The translations under genes and the position numbers were made by a program. A DNA stretch of 64,000 bases from Candidatus Binataceae bacterium (GTDB taxonomy: Bacteria; Desulfobacterota; Binatia; Binatales; Binataceae): contig DATJMX010000030.1 of NCBI GenBank assembly GCA_035508495.1, positions 33,894 through 97,893 of the forward strand, given 5' to 3'. The notes under the pieces are model-generated. The model was not told where the DNA came from. It did not search any database and worked only from the letters and a program-made list of their open reading frames with translations. Below are positions 3,352-62,946 of the stretch, piece by piece (within the stretch, counting starts at the first letter, position 1; each line of letters begins with the position of its first letter).

Positions 3352-3452
3352 GAAAGCAGAAGGGAAAAAGATCGCCACAAAGGCACAAAGGACACTAAGG
3401 AAGATCCGCCGAAGCGGCGTCGCGCCGCTTCGCTTAGTGCCCTGGTGCCTAA
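3352..3452. repeat. dispersed repeat family D copy
   Basis: CACAAAGGCACAAAGGACACTAAGG ... GAAGCGGCGTCGCGCCGCTTCG ... CTTAGTGCCCTGGTGCCTAAG, an inverted-repeat architecture around a GC hairpin. Confidence 0.6.
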
Positions 3453-3627: not shown

Positions 3628-4380
3628 ATGAATGTAGAAGGGGCGGAGCGTGAAGAAGAGCTGATTCAATCACGTGTGCGTGCAGTCGTTCGCTCGAAGC
3701 ATTACGCGTACGAGAAAATCTGGTTCAATCCAGGCTACGTCTACCGGATTCAGGAACTCGAACGCGCGATACTGGCGGCACTCGGACGAACCGGCCATGC
3801 AAATATGGAAACTCTAACCGCACTCGATATCGGTTGCGGCAGCGGAGACTGGACGCGGCAACTGATAAATTGGGGCGCACAGCCTCAGAATCTATGCGGA
3901 GTCGACCTTGTCAAGGAGCGCGTCGACGCAGCGCGCCGGCTCTGCGCCCCGGGCGTGAGAATCGATTGCGGCAGCGCTCTGCAACTGCGCCATCCCGATC
4001 GCAGCTTCGATGTCGTGATATTGTTTTCGGTCTTCTGCATGATCCTCAATGACGACGTATGCCGCGGAATCGCGCGCGAGGCCATGCGCGTGCTCAAGCA
4101 TAACGGCGTGATTCTCTGGTGTGACTATCGGTATCACCCGCCAGGCGAGAAAGACGCCCGCGGGGTGAACCTGCGCCAGCTCCGGCAGTTCTTTCCCGGT
4201 GCCCGGATAACCGCCCGTCCGATTCATCCTCTGCCGCCGTTGCTGCGCAGGATCGGCCCATATGCGCCATTCATGTGCGGCATCGTCGGCCTCGTCCCGT
4301 TCGCCCGCACGCACTACTTTGCCACCATTGAGCACGCGGTGAGAGCAAAAGAGGTCGCCTTGTCTGAACTTGAGGGGTAG
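3628..4380 (+). CDS. class I SAM-dependent methyltransferase
   Basis: Motif I LDIGCGSGDWT, a later VVILFSVF acidic-loop region, and RVLKHNGVIL. Confidence 0.7.
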   Translation: MNVEGAEREEELIQSRVRAVVRSKHYAYEKIWFNPGYVYRIQELERAILAALGRTGHANMETLTALDIGCGSGDWTRQLINWGAQPQNLCGVDLVKERVDAARRLCAPGVRIDCGSALQLRHPDRSFDVVILFSVFCMILNDDVCRGIAREAMRVLKHNGVILWCDYRYHPPGEKDARGVNLRQLRQFFPGARITARPIHPLPPLLRRIGPYAPFMCGIVGLVPFARTHYFATIEHAVRAKEVALSELEG

Positions 4381-9356: not shown

Positions 9357-9516
9357 GCGACACGCCCTGGAATGTGGCGTGAGCCGCGCGGCTACGTGTC
9401 CAACTGCGGGCAGGGACGCCCATAGGGACGCGCACCCCACAGATTCTTAGAGGCATATTGCGCCCGTTCATCAACAGTCACCGCCCAGCGACCATTCGTC
9501 ATGATCGAAAAATTCC

Positions 9517-9592
9517 GTCATCCCCAGCGAAGTCGAGGGATCTTGGAGGCCCCCAAAGGGGCCGGTGCCAAACATCGCGCGCAGCGCTTTCG
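9517..9592. repeat. dispersed repeat family C copy (GTCATCCCCAGCGAAGTCGAGGGATCTTGGAGGCCCCCAAAGGGGCCGGTGCCAAACATCGCGCGCAGCGCTTTCG)
   Basis: Near-identical units at 27101-27178 and 56821-56905, and a partial one at 28998-29013. It creates the spurious N-terminal extension of ORF 9501. Confidence 0.7.
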
Positions 9593-14996: not shown

Positions 14997-15048
14997 TGAA
15001 TAACCTCGCCTTGAATAACCTCTCCCGTTTTGCGGGCGAAATTATTCA
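14997..15048. repeat. collapsed remnant or solo inverted-repeat of MITE family A (TGAATAACCTCGCC + TTGAATAACCTCTCCCGTTTTGCGGGCGAAATTATTCAA)
   Basis: Matches the terminal inverted repeats of the 238-bp element at 44113-44350. Confidence 0.55.
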
Positions 15049-27084: not shown

Positions 27085-27100
27085 TGATGAATGACTCTCT

Positions 27101-27270
27101 GTCATCCCGAGCGAAGTCGAGGGATCTTGGTGGTCCCGAAGGGACTGGTGCCAGACATCGCGCGCAGCGCTTTCATAATGAAAGGGCGCGGTCCCGCCCG
27201 CTGTCCGGAACCGGCCCCTTCGGGACGCTCCGAGATTCTTCGACTCCGCAGACTCCGCTTAGAATGACGG
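27101..27270. repeat. full-length palindromic MITE-like element of repeat family C (two inverted arms)
   Basis: Arm 1 TGTCATCCCGAGCGAAGTCGAGGGATCTTGGTGGTCCCGAAGGGACTGGTGCC...; the reverse complement of the 3' end (CCGTCATTCTAAGCGGAG...CCCGAAGGGGCCGG...) mirrors it. Confidence 0.6.
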
Positions 27271-29406: not shown

Positions 29407-29754
29407 TCAGTCCGTCAGGTCCAGCACTTCTTTGATCGCTTCGCCGATTTTAGCCATCAGCGGAGCGTCGAACGTTACCAGCGGCCCTTCGATGAGGCGG
29501 CGGTTGTCGATTGCGCGCATCTGGTCGATGAGCAAATCGGAGCGCTCGCGCAGCTTTCCCGCGGGCAACATCCCGATGCGAAGCGGTTCCGCACCCGGGA
29601 TGGTGTTGGTGGTCAAGGGAATGATTAGTGTCGAGGGATAGGATTCGTCGAGCAGGACTTGAGCCTGAACGATCAGGACGGGGCGAAGCTTGGCCGGCTC
29701 GGCGCCGCGTTTGGGGTTCAGATTCGCGAGCCACACTTCGCCGCGATTAGGCAT
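29407..29754 (-). CDS. mazF: MazF/PemK-family type II toxin endoribonuclease
   Basis: MPNRGEVWLANLNPKRGAEPAKLRPVLIVQ is the classic MazF/PemK N-terminus. Confidence 0.8.
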   Translation of the reverse strand: MPNRGEVWLANLNPKRGAEPAKLRPVLIVQAQVLLDESYPSTLIIPLTTNTIPGAEPLRIGMLPAGKLRERSDLLIDQMRAIDNRRLIEGPLVTFDAPLMAKIGEAIKEVLDLTD

Positions 29755-29983
29755 CGGGGTTACGCTCGGCCGCCTCGAACTCGGCGCTTACGCGCATGTT
29801 CTCCTTGCGGACTTTGCGCGAGGCGCTCACCAGTCGATCGGCTCGAAGCCTTGCCTCGGTATCGCGGTTCATCCGCTCGATCGCTTGCCGGATGTATTCG
29901 GCGCGGGCGAGCCCGAGCGCGCGGGCATTTCGTTCGCTACGCTCGAGAGTGCCTTGGGGCAACTTGAGGGAAATGGCTTCCAT
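29747..29983 (-). CDS. ribbon-helix-helix (CopG/MazE-like) antitoxin
   Basis: 78 aa, RHH-like (AEYIRQAIERMNRD); overlaps the mazF start by 8 bp. Confidence 0.6.
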   Translation of the reverse strand: MEAISLKLPQGTLERSERNARALGLARAEYIRQAIERMNRDTEARLRADRLVSASRKVRKENMRVSAEFEAAERNPDA

Positions 29984-30758: not shown

Positions 30759-31061
30759 ATGGCCAACTACGTTATCTTTTTCCATATCACTCATCAGGGT
30801 CTAGACCATCTCAAAGGCGGGCCGGAACGGATCGAAGCGATCCGCCAGGACTTCGACAAACACGGCGCGAAGGTCAAGGATTTCTACGCCTTCATGGGGC
30901 ATCCGACCTACGACACGATGTTTCTGGTCGAGGCGCCGAGCGACGAGGCGATCTCGCAGCTCGTCTTGAAGATCGAGGCGGCAGGCAACGTGCGCAGCGA
31001 AACCCATCGCGCATTCAACTTCGACGAGTGGAAGAAGCTCGTCGCTGGCGTAGGCAAGTAA
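30759..31061 (+). CDS. GYD domain-containing protein
   Basis: MANYVIFFHITHQGLDHLKGGPERIEA...FMGHPTYDTMFLVEAPSDEAI...GNVRSETHRAF matches the GYD family layout. Confidence 0.65.
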   Translation: MANYVIFFHITHQGLDHLKGGPERIEAIRQDFDKHGAKVKDFYAFMGHPTYDTMFLVEAPSDEAISQLVLKIEAAGNVRSETHRAFNFDEWKKLVAGVGK

Positions 31062-31087: not shown

Positions 31088-31200
31088 AAATTCCCGTGCG
31101 GGAAGGGAAAGAGAGTTAGTTTTTTTCTGGATTCGGCTTGAGTAAAAAATCCAGAAACGACCTAAACCCCTAGCCCCTTCCGGCACGGGAAGGGGAACCG
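31088..31200. repeat. MITE-like palindromic element, repeat family B (TTCCCGTGCGGGAAGGGAAAGAGAGTTAG ... spacer hairpin ... ACGACCTAAACCCCTAGCCCCTTCCGGCACGGGAAGGGGA)
   Basis: Inverted arms with an internal TCTGGATT/AATCCAGA hairpin. Related copies at 58364-58471 (full) and 41921-41962 (single arm). Confidence 0.65.
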
Positions 31201-31973
31201 GAAACGGAGCGGCGGCCCGGGCGGGCAAGATGCTTTGAGGCTTCGGCGATGCTTAGGTTCGAGAGGCGCTTTTCGTTGCGTTTGATGAAGGCGCCGACGG
31301 CGCGAGGATCGCTTTTGCTGTATTCGCGCAGGGCCCATCCAATTGCCTTGCGGATGAAGAATTCCTTCTCATGAGCGCGGCGCAGGCAATGAGCGAATAG
31401 CTGCCGCGCGTCGGTCTCGTGCTTGTGCTTCAGATGCGCTATCAGCGCGGTGCGTCGAATCCACATGTCGTCGTCGTCGATCCACTGCTCGATGATCGGC
31501 CTCACTTCTTTGCGATTGGCGCTAAGTACGTTGCCGACGAGATGCGCCGCGATTTCATCGACGAAGTCCCACCACGCTCCCTCGCGAACCATCCGCTCGT
31601 ACAGCGCGAGCGATTCGAGCGCGATGAAATCGCGATGCTGCCGCGCGTAGGCGATCGCGATGTACTGTTCTTCGCGGTGCGGCAACTTCCACAACGCGAG
31701 CACGCCGCTTTCGTATGACTTGCGATCCGTCGGCGCGAATCTGGTGCGTATTTCCTTGATGATCGGTGCGCGCAGCGGCGTCGGCACGCCATAGAAGGTC
31801 TGCGACGTTTTCATATAGGCGGCCATCTGCACGGCCTTCTCAGGATCGGCGAGCCGCTTCAGCTCTGCCGTGACGAATCGCGCGAGCGCGGCGCTCTGGT
31901 CGGTCGATTTCACAGCCTGTTGACTAGCATCCGAGAGCATCCGTGAGCGAGCTTCCGGCTTGCCCGCCAACAT
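31170..31973 (-). CDS. DNA alkylation repair protein (AlkD-like HEAT-repeat glycosylase family)
   Basis: All-helical, with WWDFVDEIAAHLVGNVL, HLKHKHETDARQLF and RKAIGWALREYSKSDP matching the PF08713 pattern. Its last 10 or so codons and its stop lie inside the family B element. Confidence 0.65.
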   Translation of the reverse strand: MLAGKPEARSRMLSDASQQAVKSTDQSAALARFVTAELKRLADPEKAVQMAAYMKTSQTFYGVPTPLRAPIIKEIRTRFAPTDRKSYESGVLALWKLPHREEQYIAIAYARQHRDFIALESLALYERMVREGAWWDFVDEIAAHLVGNVLSANRKEVRPIIEQWIDDDDMWIRRTALIAHLKHKHETDARQLFAHCLRRAHEKEFFIRKAIGWALREYSKSDPRAVGAFIKRNEKRLSNLSIAEASKHLARPGRRSVSGSPSRAGRG

Positions 31974-32020: not shown

Positions 32021-32180
32021 GCCCCTCTCTCTGAGCAGGGAGAGGGCAAGGGTGAGGGTATTCTGGGTTTTGATCTCGCGGGGATCAGCGCAGAGTCAGG
32101 CGACCCTCACCCGGCGCCGGGGTGCGGCGCCGATCTCTCCCTGGTCAGGGACAGGGATTTTGAGCGAGAGGCGGTCGCGA
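32021..32180. repeat. composite palindromic repeat, family E (CCCCTCTC(T/C)CTG(A/G)(G/T)CAGGGAG...GGGATTTT), with internal GGGTGAGGG/CCCTCACCC inverted repeat
   Basis: CTCTCCCTGGTCAGGGACAGGGATTTTGAG at about 32144 matches CCTCTCCCTGGTCAGGGAGCGGGATTTTCGG at 48957-48988; a related half-copy sits at 32021-32078. Confidence 0.55.
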
Positions 32181-40874: not shown

Positions 40875-40967
40875 TGGATTCAAGGTGCGCGCCGCGCTAT
40901 GCTGCGGGGTCTGAAATCGGTGGTGGTTGACGCCGACGGTCCTCCATTCAAGGAGAATAGAGCCAAG

Positions 40968-41807
40968 ATGGAACGAGCTGCCAAACTCGCCAAGGGATCC
41001 GCCGCGCTTCGCGCGCTGGTCACCTCGGCATTCGTTGCAGGACTGTTCTGCGCGTCGTCTGCATTCTGCCAGGATGCCGCTCCGATCGCGCAAAACCCCA
41101 CCGCGCAGTCGGCGGCTCAGGCCAAGCCGCTGCCCCCGGGCGAGAACGGAGGACCTCCGGGCGAGAACATGAGCGTGCGCGCCGATCCGCTCGAACCGTT
41201 CAACAGCGCGATGTTTAAATTCAACCTCAAGCTCGACGACTGGGTGCTCCATCCGGTTGCATCGGGCTACGCCTTCATCGCGCCCGAGCCGGTGCGCAAA
41301 AGCGTCGGTCACTTCTTCAACAACGTCGACGTGATCCCACGCCTGGCCAACAATCTCTTCCAGTTGAAGATGGCTGAGGCGGGTGTCGAGGTGGCGCGCT
41401 TCGGAATCAACAGCACACTTGGCGTGGCGGGATTTTTCGATCCAGCCAAGGACTGGTTCGGACTTGACCAGCATGACAACGACTTCGGACTGACGCTGCG
41501 CTACTGGGGCGCGCCGACTGGTCCGTACCTGATGCTGCCGTTTTTTGGTCCATCGACGATCGGCGACACCATCGGCAAAGTCGCCGACGGTGCAATGAAT
41601 CCCATGGACTACTTGCTGCCGTGGTACGTATACATACCGGCGAACGCTGGATGGCGCATTGGCGAGGCGGTGAACTATCGCTCGATGCATCTGAACCAGT
41701 TCGAAGAGGCCGACCGCTATGCGATCGATCTCTACGGCGCGGTGCAGGATGCGTACATGCAGCAGCGCGACAACACGGTGAAGAAGCTCCACGAAGAAGA
41801 GTGGTAA
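40968..41807 (+). CDS. mlaA: MlaA/VacJ-family lipoprotein
   Basis: DPLEPFNSAMFKFNLKLDDWVLHPVASGY and GFFDPAKDWFGLDQHDNDFGLTLRYWG. Start at MERAAKLAKG with AAGGAGAA RBS. Confidence 0.8.
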   Translation: MERAAKLAKGSAALRALVTSAFVAGLFCASSAFCQDAAPIAQNPTAQSAAQAKPLPPGENGGPPGENMSVRADPLEPFNSAMFKFNLKLDDWVLHPVASGYAFIAPEPVRKSVGHFFNNVDVIPRLANNLFQLKMAEAGVEVARFGINSTLGVAGFFDPAKDWFGLDQHDNDFGLTLRYWGAPTGPYLMLPFFGPSTIGDTIGKVADGAMNPMDYLLPWYVYIPANAGWRIGEAVNYRSMHLNQFEEADRYAIDLYGAVQDAYMQQRDNTVKKLHEEEW

Positions 41808-41920: not shown

Positions 41921-41962
41921 TTCCCTTCCCGGTGCGGGAAGGGGACAGGGGTTAGGTCGTCT
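41921..41962. repeat. single-arm copy of repeat family B (TTCCCTTCCCGGTGCGGGAAGGGGACAGGGGTTAGGTCGTCT)
   Basis: Matches the arms of the elements at 31088-31200 and 58364-58471. Confidence 0.55.
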
Positions 41963-44112: not shown

Positions 44113-44350
44113 TGAATAACCTCGCCCGCAAAGCGGGAGAGGTCGGATGGCGAGGAGCTTGAGATGTCTGAGTTCAAGCTGCTTGCCATCCGGGCGAGGG
44201 TGCAGCGGCGGGAGCGTGCAGGAACTTCTCGCTGCTAACATTCTGCCAGCTTCGAACGCCGCACCCTCACCCGCACGTCACGGCGCATGCGAAAAAAACG
44301 CAACCGCTGCGCCGCGCGACCTCTCCCGCGATGCGGGCGAGGTTATTTGG
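44113..44350. mobile_element. 238-bp MITE-like element (family A) with about 33-bp terminal inverted repeats, inserted between the LLM oxidoreductase and obg
   Basis: Left end TGAATAACCTCGCCCGCAAAGCGGGAGAGGTCG; right end CGACCTCTCCCGCGATGCGGGCGAGGTTATTTGG, whose reverse complement is CCAAATAACCTCGCCCGCATCGCGGGAGAGGTCG. A collapsed copy sits at 14997-15048. Confidence 0.65.
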
Positions 44351-56760: not shown

Positions 56761-56820
56761 CGATGCGGAGGCTCCGAGCCTTTCCGTCGCCCATTTAAAT
56801 CGTTGGCCGCGATCGAGTCC

Positions 56821-56930
56821 GTCATCCAGAGCGGTGACCGCGAAGGATCTCGGAGGCCCCGAAGGGGCCGGCACCGGTAAGCGCGCGAAGCGCTTTCCTT
56901 AAGCGCGATCTATCGCGAGAAAACGCTTAA
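56821..56930. repeat. repeat family C copy (CGTCATCCAGAGCGGTGACCGCGAAGGATCTCGGAGGCCCCGAAGGGGCCGGCACCGG...) with CTTAAGCG/CGCTTAAG inverted tail
   Basis: Matches 9517-9592 and 27101-27270; its 5' end matches the partial copy at 28998-29013. Confidence 0.6.
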
Positions 56931-57023
56931 GGGTTGGACGCGAACAAGAAAGCTCGAACTGATCCAAACAACCAACCCGGCGATGGCCGATCTCAGTCCC
57001 GCATTGGCATAGAATACTGGACG

Positions 57024-58286
57024 ATGCGGTTTCACTTCGTGCACGCACGAATCTTTCTTGCACTCGCGATCGTGGTGGCGTTCTCAATCGCGCCCGCACC
57101 AGCGCACGCCGACACCCTCGCGGATCGCGCGGGGCAGCTTGCCGATGCTGCGTTTGTGATGCTCAATTCGCTCAACAATGCGGAGGCCGGCAAGTACAGC
57201 GGCGGGCCGCTGCTTGCGCCTACCGCTGAACTCGCGAGCAATGCGCAGGCGCTCGCTTCGGCAGTGAAATCCGGCGATACCTCGGGAGCGCGGCATGCGA
57301 TGGCCGCGATCGTTCGCGACCAGGGCACGATTGAGCCGCTCACCAATGGCATATCGCCCACAATTCTCGCCGAATGGGGTTCGCTGAAGACCCAGATCGC
57401 GTTGGTACAGAAAGAGGTGCCGCCCGAGCAGGGTGCGCCGCCTTCGATTCCGGCTGCATCTGAACCTCCTGCCGAATCACCGCCGCCGGTCGGCTCGGCG
57501 CCGGTATCGAGTCACGCCAGCGCACCGCAAATCGTGATCGACAAGCGCACTTCAAATCCCGAAGACGATTCGCTGACCGTGCATGGCTTTATCCAGGGCA
57601 CCGATCTCAAGGACGCCGGGATCTATCAGGGTGGCCGCAAGCTCAAGGATATCGAGGTCGCGAGCGTGCACGGTGAGCAGCGCCTCAACTTTACCTTCAA
57701 GATCAATGATCCCGAGCCCGACCAGTACATCAGTGCGACGGATATCGAGGGCCGCCAGGCGAGCGCCAGTATCACGGGCGATTCGAGCGCCCCGTCATTA
57801 GCACCGCCAGCGAGCGAAGCGGGCGGTGCGTCCGAAGCGGGAGTCGCACCCGAAGCGGGAGAGGCGCCGACGATCGGAGGCTCGGACAGCAGCACGGCCG
57901 AGATTTCACCGTCGGGCGGTCCCGAGCTTTCACCCGAGCCCACCCGCCGCCTGACTGAGCTTGGCAACGTGCAAATCAATATCGCGATGATCCGGCGCTC
58001 GCCGACCGCGACCAATGAGTACGAAGTGAGCGGCCAGATCGTTGGCAACGTGACGCGCGCCGGAATCTACGCCGGCGGCCGCATGATCAAGCAAATCCCG
58101 CTGATCCCCGGCGGCTTCAGCAACTTCGACGTGACCTTCTCACGACTCGGCCGCAAGAATATCGCGATTCGCGCCTACGGACCCGGCAGCGACTTCGTCG
58201 AGCAGCCTCTCGCCCCGGGCGCCGGTATCTCGACCTTCAGCAACGCCCGCCCGTCGAGTCCATATCCTTACGGTGCCGCCCCCTAA
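57024..58286 (+). CDS. secreted protein with Pro/Ala/Ser-rich linkers and two internally repeated beta-domain modules
   Basis: Signal MRFHFVHARIFLALAIVVAFSIAPAPAHA. Repeats HGFIQGTDLKDAGIYQGGRKLKDIEV...FTFKI and SGQIVGNVTRAGIYAGGRMIKQIPL...FDVTF. Confidence 0.5.
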   Translation: MRFHFVHARIFLALAIVVAFSIAPAPAHADTLADRAGQLADAAFVMLNSLNNAEAGKYSGGPLLAPTAELASNAQALASAVKSGDTSGARHAMAAIVRDQGTIEPLTNGISPTILAEWGSLKTQIALVQKEVPPEQGAPPSIPAASEPPAESPPPVGSAPVSSHASAPQIVIDKRTSNPEDDSLTVHGFIQGTDLKDAGIYQGGRKLKDIEVASVHGEQRLNFTFKINDPEPDQYISATDIEGRQASASITGDSSAPSLAPPASEAGGASEAGVAPEAGEAPTIGGSDSSTAEISPSGGPELSPEPTRRLTELGNVQINIAMIRRSPTATNEYEVSGQIVGNVTRAGIYAGGRMIKQIPLIPGGFSNFDVTFSRLGRKNIAIRAYGPGSDFVEQPLAPGAGISTFSNARPSSPYPYGAAP

Positions 58287-58363: not shown

Positions 58364-58471
58364 CTTCCCTTCCAGTGCAGGAAGGGAAAGAGGGTTAGGT
58401 CGTCTCTTTTTCTGAAAAGATCTCAGACAAACGACCTAACCCCCAGCCCCTTCCCGCATCAGGACGGGGGG
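58364..58471. repeat. MITE-like palindromic element, repeat family B, full copy
   Basis: CTTCCCTTCCAGTGCAGGAAGGGAAAGAGGGTTAGGTCGTCT, a spacer, then ACGACCTAACCCCCAGCCCCTTCCCGCATCAGGACGGGGGGG. Confidence 0.65.
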
Positions 58472-58576: not shown

Positions 58577-59140
58577 ATGCAGATTCAAGCGACGCAACTC
58601 CGCGCCGGTATGGTGCTCGAGTACAACAAGGATCTATGGCGCGTGATGAGCGTCACTCACATCACACCCGGCAACTGGCGCGGGATGGTGCAGACCAAAC
58701 TGCGCAACATCAAGAGCGGCTCGCAGACAGAAAATCGCTTCCGCTCTGAAGACCGCGTCGAGCGCGTCATCCTGAACCAGCATACGATGCAGTTCCTCTA
58801 CCAGGATGGCGACGACTATCACTTCATGAACACCGAGAACTACGAGCAGATCACGATTCCCAAGGATCTGATCGAAGACGTCGTCGGCTACCTCACGCCC
58901 AACCTCGAAGTCGAAGTCGAGTTCTACGAGACCACGCCGCTCAACGTCACTCCGCCCAAAACGATCACGCTCAAGGTGATCGCGGCCGACCCGGGTCTCA
59001 AGACCGCCGCTGTCACCAACACGCTCAAGAATGCCACGGTCGAAACCGGGATGGTCGTGCAGGTGCCGCACTTCGTCAACGAAGGCGATACCATCACGCT
59101 CAACACCGAAACCGGCGAATATCTCTCGCGGAACAAGTAG
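58577..59140 (+). CDS. efp: elongation factor P
   Basis: MQIQATQLRAGMVLEYNKDLWRV...KLRNIKSGSQTENRFRSEDRVERV...PHFVNEGDTITLNTETGEYLSRNK. Confidence 0.9.
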   Translation: MQIQATQLRAGMVLEYNKDLWRVMSVTHITPGNWRGMVQTKLRNIKSGSQTENRFRSEDRVERVILNQHTMQFLYQDGDDYHFMNTENYEQITIPKDLIEDVVGYLTPNLEVEVEFYETTPLNVTPPKTITLKVIAADPGLKTAAVTNTLKNATVETGMVVQVPHFVNEGDTITLNTETGEYLSRNK

Positions 59141-60352: not shown

Positions 60353-60470
60353 AAAAGCAGAAGCAGTTACCACCAAGGCACGAAGACACTAAGCGAAGCG
60401 GCGCAGCGCCGCTTCGTTTATTACCTTACTGACTTTCTGCCTTCGTGCCTTTGTGGTTCTCTGCCTGCCT
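60353..60470. repeat. dispersed repeat family D, best-preserved copy (ACCAAGGCACGAAGACACTAAG + GCGAAGCGGCGCAGCGCCGCTTCG + inverted CCTTCGTGCCTTTGTGGTT)
   Basis: Inverted flanks around a 10-bp GC stem, located at the 3' end of the methyltransferase gene. Confidence 0.6.
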
Positions 60471-61920: not shown

Positions 61921-62118
61921 TGCAAGGAAGCGCGGCGGAAGCGCGAAGCGGTCCGAGGTGATTTGGCCCCCAAAAACCCCTTTTTTGCCCTAAACCATGT
62001 TGAGGGTATCGCCAGTCATTTGAAGTGATTGGCTGCGACTTACTCCGAGCCTTCGCGGCAGCCGCTCAGGATGACGGATTCGATCGCAGCGATAGGATCA
62101 GACGATAGAGTCATCTCC

Positions 62119-62192
62119 AAAAAAATACAGTGGGGTGGGCGTCCCTGCCCGCCATTAAGATGGCGCGCTGCGCGCCTTCGATGGCTGTGAAA
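62119..62192. repeat. repeat family F copy 1 (GGTGGGCGTCCCTGCCCGCCATTAAGATGGCGCGCTGCGCGCCTTCGATGGCTGTGAAA)
   Basis: About 75-bp direct repeat with two internal palindromes (GGGCGTCCCTGCCC; GGCGCGCTGCGCGCC). The second copy is at 62871-62946. Confidence 0.6.
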
Positions 62193-62870: not shown

Positions 62871-62946
62871 AAAAATCGGTGGGGCGGGCGTCCCTGCCCG
62901 CGGTTAAGATGGCGCGCTGCGCCGCCTTCCATGGCTGTGAAAAAAG
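62871..62946. repeat. repeat family F copy 2
   Basis: GGTGGGGCGGGCGTCCCTGCCCGCGGTTAAGATGGCGCGCTGCGCCGCCTTCCATGGCTGTGAAAAAA, a direct repeat of 62119-62192. Confidence 0.6.

Follow-up and report, generated by a model that had tools for sequence, protein, structure and literature searches.

What are the palindromic elements that lie between genes in this Candidatus Binataceae genome, how did they come to be there, and does any enzyme accompany them? A sequence-only reading of one 64,000-nucleotide stretch of its DNA (the window) had proposed a family of palindromes of about 110 bp at three intergenic loci, including a solo arm at 41921-41962. Our results bear this out. Family B, as we call it, is represented in the window by four intact arms and one degenerate arm, at 31090-31195, 58364-58469 and 41923-41960 (the solo arm), and the flanking ORFs place all three loci between genes. 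Copy 1 lies between the convergent genes for GYD (30759-31061, plus strand) and AlkD (31170-31973, minus strand), and copy 2 between an ORF for a secreted protein (56934-58286, plus strand) and efp (58577-59140, plus strand). The solo arm, which is also present in a contig of the same strain (L120), stands 3′ of mlaA (40899-41807, plus strand) and of mlaA's own canonical terminator. The parts of these elements, together with those of a related doublet near copy 1, are as follows.

31090..31119, plus strand: left arm of copy 1, degenerate; outer stem mutated, with AAATTCCC in place of CCCCTTCCC, and third block truncated at ...GAGAGTTAG
31120..31156, no strand assigned: spacer of copy 1, with its own small hairpin TTTCTGGATT...AATCCAGAAA
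31157..31195, minus strand: right arm of copy 1, reading CCCCTTCC-CGTGCC-GGAAGGGG-CTA-GGGGTTTAGGTCGT on that strand; profile E=1.4e-6
31170..31220, minus strand: non-conserved C-terminal extension of AlkD, PGRRSVSGSPSRAGRG*, its last 9-10 codons and stop supplied by the arm and its flank
32023..32058, plus strand: left arm of the sister doublet, CCCTCTCTC-TGAGCA-GGGAGAGGG-CAA-GGGTGAGGG, differing from the E. coli TMECO consensus by a single mismatch
32103..32157, minus strand: right arm of the sister doublet, third block ACCCTCACCC (as read on the plus strand) and hairpin TCTCTCCCTGGTCAGGGACAGGGA
41923..41960, plus strand: solo arm, CCCTTCCCG-GTG-CGGGAAGGG-GACA-GGGGTTAGGTCGT; profile E=1.6e-10
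58364..58403, plus strand: left arm of copy 2, CTTCCCTTCC-AGTGCA-GGAAGGGAA-AGA-GGGTTAGGTCGT; profile E=3e-6
58404..58430, no strand assigned: spacer of copy 2, 27 nt, with small hairpin TCTGA...TCAGA
58431..58469, minus strand: right arm of copy 2, reading CCCCGTCC-TGATGCG-GGAAGGGG-CTG-GGGGTTAGGTCGT on that strand; profile E=1.2e-8

All five window arms of family B can be aligned with one another. Each is a hairpin with a stem of 7-9 bp, in which CCC(C)TTCC(C) and (G)GGAAGGG(G) enclose a 3-7-nt loop, and is followed after a linker of 3-5 nt by the G-rich sequence GGGGTT(T)AGGTCGT. If up to 3 mismatches are allowed, the pattern GGAAGGGN5GGGTTAGGTCGT matches the window four times, against 0.01 matches expected from shuffled sequences, and the stem pattern four times against 0.13 expected. 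An nhmmer arm profile, used for diverged arms since a fuzzy regular expression was too permissive, recovered only the four full arms from the window (E=1e-6 to 1e-10), the degenerate left arm of copy 1 falling below threshold. In both doublets the G-rich ends point inwards across a spacer of 27-37 nt that has its own small hairpin, and the doublets form much more stable folds than shuffled sequence does (z=-4 to -8). The inverted arms and the spacer hairpin of the earlier description therefore stand, whereas its third element, a G-rich mirror block, had been overlooked; likewise, the arm consensus given there fits the left arms, but the right arms read GGGGCTRGGGGTT(T)AGGTCGT instead. Two familiar kinds of palindromic DNA can be set aside. 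In integron attC sites, which come in cassette arrays, an imperfect palindrome is bounded first by R'' (RYYYAAC) and then by R' (GTTRRRY); the doublets show GTTAGGT before ACCTAAC, the reverse order, and come with neither an array nor an integrase. CRISPR was ruled out on geometry and on the missing arrays.

The window also contains repeats of other kinds. Another dispersed family has copies at 9514-9591, 27098-27174 (with an inverted partner at 27195-27249), 56806-56897 and 62047-62090, which are 78-90% identical and read TCCGTCATCCC.AGCGAAGTCGAGGGATCT...GGCCCC.AAGGGGCC...CGCGCGCAGCGCTTTC. A third family, at 2177-2267, 3364-3450 and 60376-60434, has GAAAAAGATC.CCAC.AAG.CAC.AAG and then a hairpin, CGAAGCGGCG..GCGCCGCTTCG. 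An inverted pair built on AATAACCTCGCCCGCAAAGCGGGAGAGGT (44115-44161 and 44301-44347, 81% complementary, 139 nt apart) has a further copy 29 kb off, at 15018-15048, and two 52-nt copies of AAAA.ACAGTGGGGTGGGCGTCCCTGCCCGCC.TTAAGATGGCGCGCTGCGC (62122-62173 and 62871-62922, 88% identical) flank a 167-aa ORF. Two small overlapping minus-strand ORFs at 29407-29983 would, judged by their translation, encode a putative PemK/MazF-type toxin (MPNRGEVWLANLNPKRG...) and an antitoxin; a PemK_toxin gene is found near the FeS-assembly gene of one relative (L123).

Comparison with relatives tells how the elements came to occupy their sites. The window's coding DNA is 77-81% identical to that of Binatia-like metagenome-assembled genomes (MAGs), and three of the relatives compared are syntenic around copy 1 (L119, L122 and L123), with the gene order uvrC-like, AlkD, GYD, FeS-assembly. 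AlkD and GYD are 4, 11 and 15 bp apart in these three and about 150 bp apart in the window, and the arm motif is found at that junction in none of them. Similarly, the gap between AlkD and the uvrC-like gene is 92-96 bp in the relatives and about 245 bp in the window. Upstream of efp, more distant relatives (L126-L128) have a gap of 79-110 bp and no element, and the closest relative, L124, whose EF-P is 98% identical, has at the very site of copy 2 a doublet of the sister subfamily, CCCTCTCCC...GGGAGAGGG-CTA-GGGTGAGGG. A same-protein look-up with EF-P gave no match. Since the elements are missing from the short gaps of syntenic relatives, the window copies represent insertions, and from these alignments we are confident that they are non-coding and were inserted in this lineage. 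No target-site duplication was seen at the element junctions.

In one case the insertion reached into a gene. The ORF at 31170-31973 encodes a DNA-alkylation-repair protein (PF08713), and a changed C-terminus had been proposed for it at copy 1. The comparison with orthologues confirms the change. The orthologues, several of them named Candidatus Binatus or Binataceae, stop 2-4 residues past SKHLAR, whereas the window protein has about 14 residues more, runs into the arm and ends ...GSPSRAGRG*, its TAG stop lying in the 3-nt linker of the right arm (linker CTA plus the next G). Thus, the insertion of copy 1 rewrote the end of AlkD. On the other side of the same gene, in the divergent region between the starts of AlkD and the uvrC-like gene, we found a related inverted doublet (32023-32157) that had been missed before. 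Its right arm has an extra small GC palindrome between the third block and the hairpin and is about 80% similar to the element that precedes efp in L124. Together with copy 1, this doublet means that triplex-type repeats flank AlkD on either side.

To what class do these repeats belong? Each arm consists of three blocks, namely pyrimidine CCCCTTCCC, complementary purine GGGAAGGGG and G-rich GGGGTT(A)GG, the last of which mirrors the purine side of the stem. Scored by the purine-motif triplex rule (an antiparallel third strand with G*G, A*T or A*A), 100 of 127 arms reach 8/8 allowed triplets if one base is bulged out, whereas tails that had been shuffled reach 5.2/8 on average; in the arm alignment the loop is 3-7 nt and the linker 3 nt. 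By its sequence, the mirror block would be able to pair with the purine strand as the third strand of a triplex. The TT-variant arm, written as a single-strand oligonucleotide, is CCCCTTCCCGGTGCGGGAAGGGGACAGGGGTTAGG. This build is that of the BoxC or PIT (potential intrastrand triplex) elements, which in E. coli also go by the name of TM or TMECO triplex motifs and of which Bergler in 1992 and Hoyne in 2000 reportedly gave earlier accounts. The TMECO consensus is CCCTCNCCC N3-6 GGGNGAGGG N3 GGGNGAGGG, with TTA or CCG as second loops; E. coli MG1655 has 23 copies, strictly intergenic and on both strands, five inverted pairs among them, and triplex motifs are known from more than 260 genomes, notably of Enterobacteria and Cyanobacteria (Holder et al. 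2015, PMC4666352). The TMECO triplex formed in vitro and was undetected in vivo (PMC4666352). Family B arms do not match the TMECO consensus, having TT/AA where it has TCN/NGA. However, the sister arm differs from it by one mismatch and exact matches occur in Binatia (L124, L059, L005, L022 and L108), which makes family B a TT/AA sequence variant of the class. We are confident that family B arms are repeats of the BoxC/PIT class. A literature search with the arm sequence string returned primers only.

Family B is dispersed well beyond its source genome. A single scan of 185,579 species genomes with an exact 19-base pattern, the source genome being outside these representatives, yielded 113 loci, where about 4-10 would be expected by chance; as the pattern was exact, copies per genome are underestimated. 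The loci span Binatia (including MAGs labelled 'delta proteobacterium MFD'), Chloroflexota (many matches; Thermomicrobiales, Dehalococcoidia, Anaerolineae and Ktedonobacterales), Nostoc and Armatimonadota (Chthonomonadaceae). Nearly all 113 have the 5′ half-stem, which is outside the search pattern, and conservation ends sharply after GGTCGT. A profile search of these loci found 197 non-overlapping copies. By the heuristic calls of a crude GC3-based gene caller, the copies are mostly intergenic, with no strong strand bias (orientation 54 vs 41). Doublets of both geometries occur, outward-facing pairs with conserved cores dominating in Thermomicrobiales and some Binatia, and there are also arm clusters and tandem hairpin modules. 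According to the same gene calls, the G-rich arm end often abuts a stop codon, and in 14 cases the neighbouring ORF ends ACG ACC TAA within the arm.

Some of these loci are of interest in their own right. One IMG/VR contig (L116) has five arms and tandem arm-like hairpin modules of about 42 nt, at 2195-2413 and 3823-4071. Filed as viral, it looks like Binatia chromosomal DNA, not phage; viral contigs gave only 3 matches, and L116 leaves phage carriage unsupported. In several Chloroflexota loci (L017, L020, L027, L037 and L086), GTAG-type REPs, GTAGGGGCG...CGCCCCTAC, directly adjoin triplex-type arms, forming BIME-like mosaics of two repeat classes. IS1595-family genes sit in arm hairpins of two unrelated Binatia loci (L040 2276-3226 and L209 972-1901), so that arms do serve as insertion targets.

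The finding that small genes for DUF559 (Vsr-fold) nucleases are flanked by arms is new here. ORFs from the 113 motif-selected loci were grouped by similarity, and the larger clusters, searched against Pfam, were mostly large housekeeping families. One cluster proved to be a small DUF559 protein (PF04480, E=7e-33) from three loci of different lineages, each arm-flanked. A DUF559 profile run on the motif-selected loci picked out seven ORFs, two of them damaged or partial; all seven adjoin arms or variant arms, and several of the frames end inside the downstream arm. In about 94% of the motif-selected loci, the arms have no DUF559 in their vicinity. With an alignment of these DUF559 proteins, an independent set of 80 metagenome loci was fetched by protein similarity alone, and 44 of the 80 have a motif match immediately beside the DUF559 gene. 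A perfect pyrimidine/purine (CT/GA) hairpin lies at most 170 nt upstream of the gene in 51 of 67 testable loci, at its stop in 29 of 76, and on at least one side in 57 of 65 (on neither side in 8/65), whereas far from the gene such hairpins occur at a background rate of 0.12 per kb. In this set, 14 of 78 DUF559 genes end ACC TAA CCC. A recurrent layout is [TT-type arm][TCT-type arm], DUF559, [TT-type arm][TCT-type arm].

The cassettes of Binatus come closest to what is seen in the window. In Binatus, the DUF559 proteins P0312 and P0343 are encoded in two gene contexts, DUF507/CyaY and FeS-assembly/FAD-oxidase, with one and the same layout: hairpin and G-block, about 22 nt, ATG...DUF559...AAC CTA ACC CCT AA, hairpin. 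The protein is about 127 aa long, with its last codons in the downstream arm and its stop codon in the 3-nt linker of that arm. The arms face inwards as in the window doublets, and the gene stands where the 27-nt spacer of the window copy stands. This order of arm, gene and inverted arm makes the window doublets look like gene-less versions, and gene-less they are, given that the 64-kb window contains no DUF559 ORF. The window spacers and the gene flanks of the Binatus cassettes share no sequence similarity. Around DUF559 the arms face inwards in Binatus and are direct or outward in Chloroflexota and many metagenome loci; because orientation differs between lineages, there is no single clean 'element end' geometry.

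The association extends to E. coli K-12. Its annotated DUF559 gene, ycjD (in locus L223, NC_000913.3 1351205-1351760), is followed on the same strand, after 168 nt, by an exact TMECO; with 23 TMECO copies in 4.6 Mb, the chance of finding one within ±200 nt is about 0.002. The gene ends ...SPSP* in CACCCTCTCCCTGA, where its last codons fall within a pyrimidine block that is degenerate, and the ycjD start overlaps with an inverted repeat of 17 nt that is perfect. As for the protein family, the DUF559 profile matches PDB 3hrl (7.5e-29), the catalytic domain of the homing endonuclease I-Bth0305I (3r3p, 1.8e-4) and the NCBIfam YcjD model, and DUF559 proteins keep the catalytic pattern E..D..H (E..DG..H; ELDGG.H). 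Surveys group DUF559 with Vsr and EDxHD homing endonucleases. Among the publications consulted that mention DUF559, none appears from its title and abstract to concern DNA repeats, and Holder et al. (PMC4666352) mention neither DUF559 nor ycjD.

In our view, the window doublets are probably gene-less counterparts, of the BoxC/PIT type, of the DUF559 cassette, with a nuclease encoded elsewhere in the genome acting on their arms. They are non-coding, non-autonomous repeat DNA that was inserted where the gaps between genes are very short, and would represent either deletion derivatives of the nuclease cassette or sites left unoccupied by it. A nick or cut made by such a nuclease at the structured arm, followed by repair-mediated copying, could lead to the spread or turnover of arms. 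We infer here both that DUF559 recognises or cuts the arms and how copies would reach new sites. The overlap of gene stops with arms and the cross-phylum identity of the 40-nt sequence weigh for a functional tie. On the other hand, a simple transposon model is made less likely by the inconsistent arm orientation and by the fact that we know of no joining or strand-transfer activity of a Vsr-fold nuclease alone. A broader proposal, which we make tentatively as a possibility, is that BoxC/PIT repeats are the cognate DNA of small DUF559 Vsr-fold nucleases (YcjD and its kin), with the window doublets as non-autonomous copies. By analogy, such a partnership may resemble that of REP and RAYT, a PD-(D/E)XK nuclease replacing the HUH transposase and the two being carried together across phyla.

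Could the arms do without a dedicated enzyme altogether? They might be BoxC/PIT repeats that arise and turn over by replication or recombination errors at non-B DNA, and DUF559 genes might be selfish, homing-endonuclease-like genes that insert into them, the repeat being a target and not a partner. Homing into pre-existing repeats would give equal linkage. It would also sit well with the inconsistent arm orientation around DUF559, with the large majority of motif-selected loci that have no such gene nearby and with the IS1595-family transposases lodged in arm hairpins in L040 and L209. Moreover, rearrangement between strains is commoner at TMECO loci, which have no transposase or integrase in their neighbourhood (Holder et al., PMC4666352). 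What this explanation leaves unaccounted for, however, is the near-identity of a 40-nt sequence over four phyla and the appearance of new copies in gaps of 4-15 bp. In addition, the DUF559 frame ends within the arm in many lineages (ACC TAA CCC or linker stop), which points to an old, co-inherited arrangement. We regard an enzyme-less origin as unlikely.

Three further explanations have much less in their favour. That the doublets are REPINs, that is, REP pairs mobilised by a RAYT (HUH Y1) transposase, is suggested by their singlets and inverted doublets, intergenic placement, clusters and IS insertions in hairpins, all of which resemble REP/BIME (PMC3116915, PMC3733652). Yet the arm alignment has no GTAG or CGTC tag abutting the stem (tags as in PMC3733652), and in Chloroflexota classical GTAG REPs stand beside the arms as separate modules. 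Nor did the window and about 0.9 Mb of loci contain a Y1/RAYT-like ORF, either in phmmer searches with IS200 TnpA and with a provisional E. coli RayT sequence or by an HUH...Y regular expression; we consider REPINs very unlikely. If the elements were instead MITEs of a DDE-transposase insertion sequence, the arm would be a terminal inverted repeat of about 40 bp, in keeping with the outward-facing doublets of Thermomicrobiales and Binatia (conserved cores of 53 or about 93 nt) and with the sharp break in conservation past GGTCGT. But in the window doublets the geometry is reversed, with the supposed termini inwards, target-site duplications were not seen, and in none of the loci does a transposase lie between paired arms. 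Pairs 0.3-2.3 kb apart hold ordinary genes, e.g. a luciferase-like monooxygenase or a VWA protein, and the sole transposase seen in the search for a parent IS was the IS1595-like ORF in L040, which lies inside an arm and is not bounded by arms. A MITE origin is accordingly hard to credit. In the last explanation the arms would be under selection as cis-acting signals in RNA or transcription, for instance as terminators or as stabilisers of mRNA 3′ ends; the sequence-only reading had named transcription termination as something to test. The arms do lie 3′ of gene ends and fold strongly. Nevertheless, they lack a T-run and drew no call in a terminator scan, mlaA has a canonical terminator of its own upstream of the solo arm, copies occur in both orientations, the sister doublet at 32023-32157 lies between divergent gene starts, and the elements are absent at orthologous sites of relatives. 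A search of the elements against Rfam gave nothing at the gathering threshold and, at permissive E-values, only generic microRNA-type hairpin noise, and in E. coli PIT elements have neither promoter nor terminator activity (PMC4666352). We therefore do not favour termination, and a cis-acting role in general seems most improbable.

For the window itself the result is modest: a known class of repeats, BoxC/PIT, is placed in Binatota as a sequence variant, and its copies went in by clean insertions, in one case making a DNA-repair protein longer. Of wider interest are the origin and spread of BoxC/PIT repeats. To our knowledge, their function and origin have gone without explanation since the 1990s. 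They have been reported without an associated mobility function (Holder et al., PMC4666352), and the cross-phylum linkage to DUF559, which includes E. coli ycjD, makes the question of their origin experimentally accessible in a model organism. The linkage also offers a possible role for DUF559, a large family of unknown function.

How does family B compare with known systems? Like REPs and REPINs (Bertels & Rainey 2011, PMC3116915; Di Nocera 2013, PMC3733652), it consists of short hairpin repeats with a conserved unpaired flank, found as singlets, as inverted doublets that fold into a long hairpin and in mosaic clusters, with IS elements in the hairpin; in both systems a nuclease gene is flanked by the repeats and most copies are gene-less. 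In family B, however, the flanked gene encodes a PD-(D/E)XK Vsr-fold DUF559 protein and not an HUH Y1 transposase, and the conserved flank mirrors the stem, with no GTAG/CGTC tag. Like the Correia, RUP and Nezha MITEs, it consists of non-coding palindromes, about 100-270 bp long and bounded by inverted ends, that have been inserted beside genes and have in some cases altered gene ends; it differs in that its 'ends' face inwards or outwards and in that neither a DDE parent nor a target duplication was found. DUF559 itself shares its fold family and the E..D..H pattern with I-Bth0305I (Taylor 2011, PMC3239194; PMC3384342) and, being small, compact and present in varied genomic contexts, is like free-standing homing endonuclease genes. 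Its genes nonetheless lie outside introns and inteins, lack the N-terminal DNA-binding domains of I-Bth0305I and are flanked by a dispersed repeat instead of a conserved host gene. The closest likeness in the repeat itself is to BoxC/PIT. Both have three blocks with loops N3-6 and N3 and a total of about 35-40 nt, second loops of TTA or CCG type, and multiple intergenic copies on either strand, often in inverted pairs, at loci that vary between close relatives. What sets family B apart are its blocks, CCCCTTCCC/GGGAAGGGG/GGGGTT(A)GG against CCCTCNCCC/GGGNGAGGG/GGGNGAGGG in TMECO, the one bulged base in its third block, the conserved sequence that runs on to ...GGTCGT, and its hosts, which are Binatota, with relatives in Chloroflexota and Armatimonadota.
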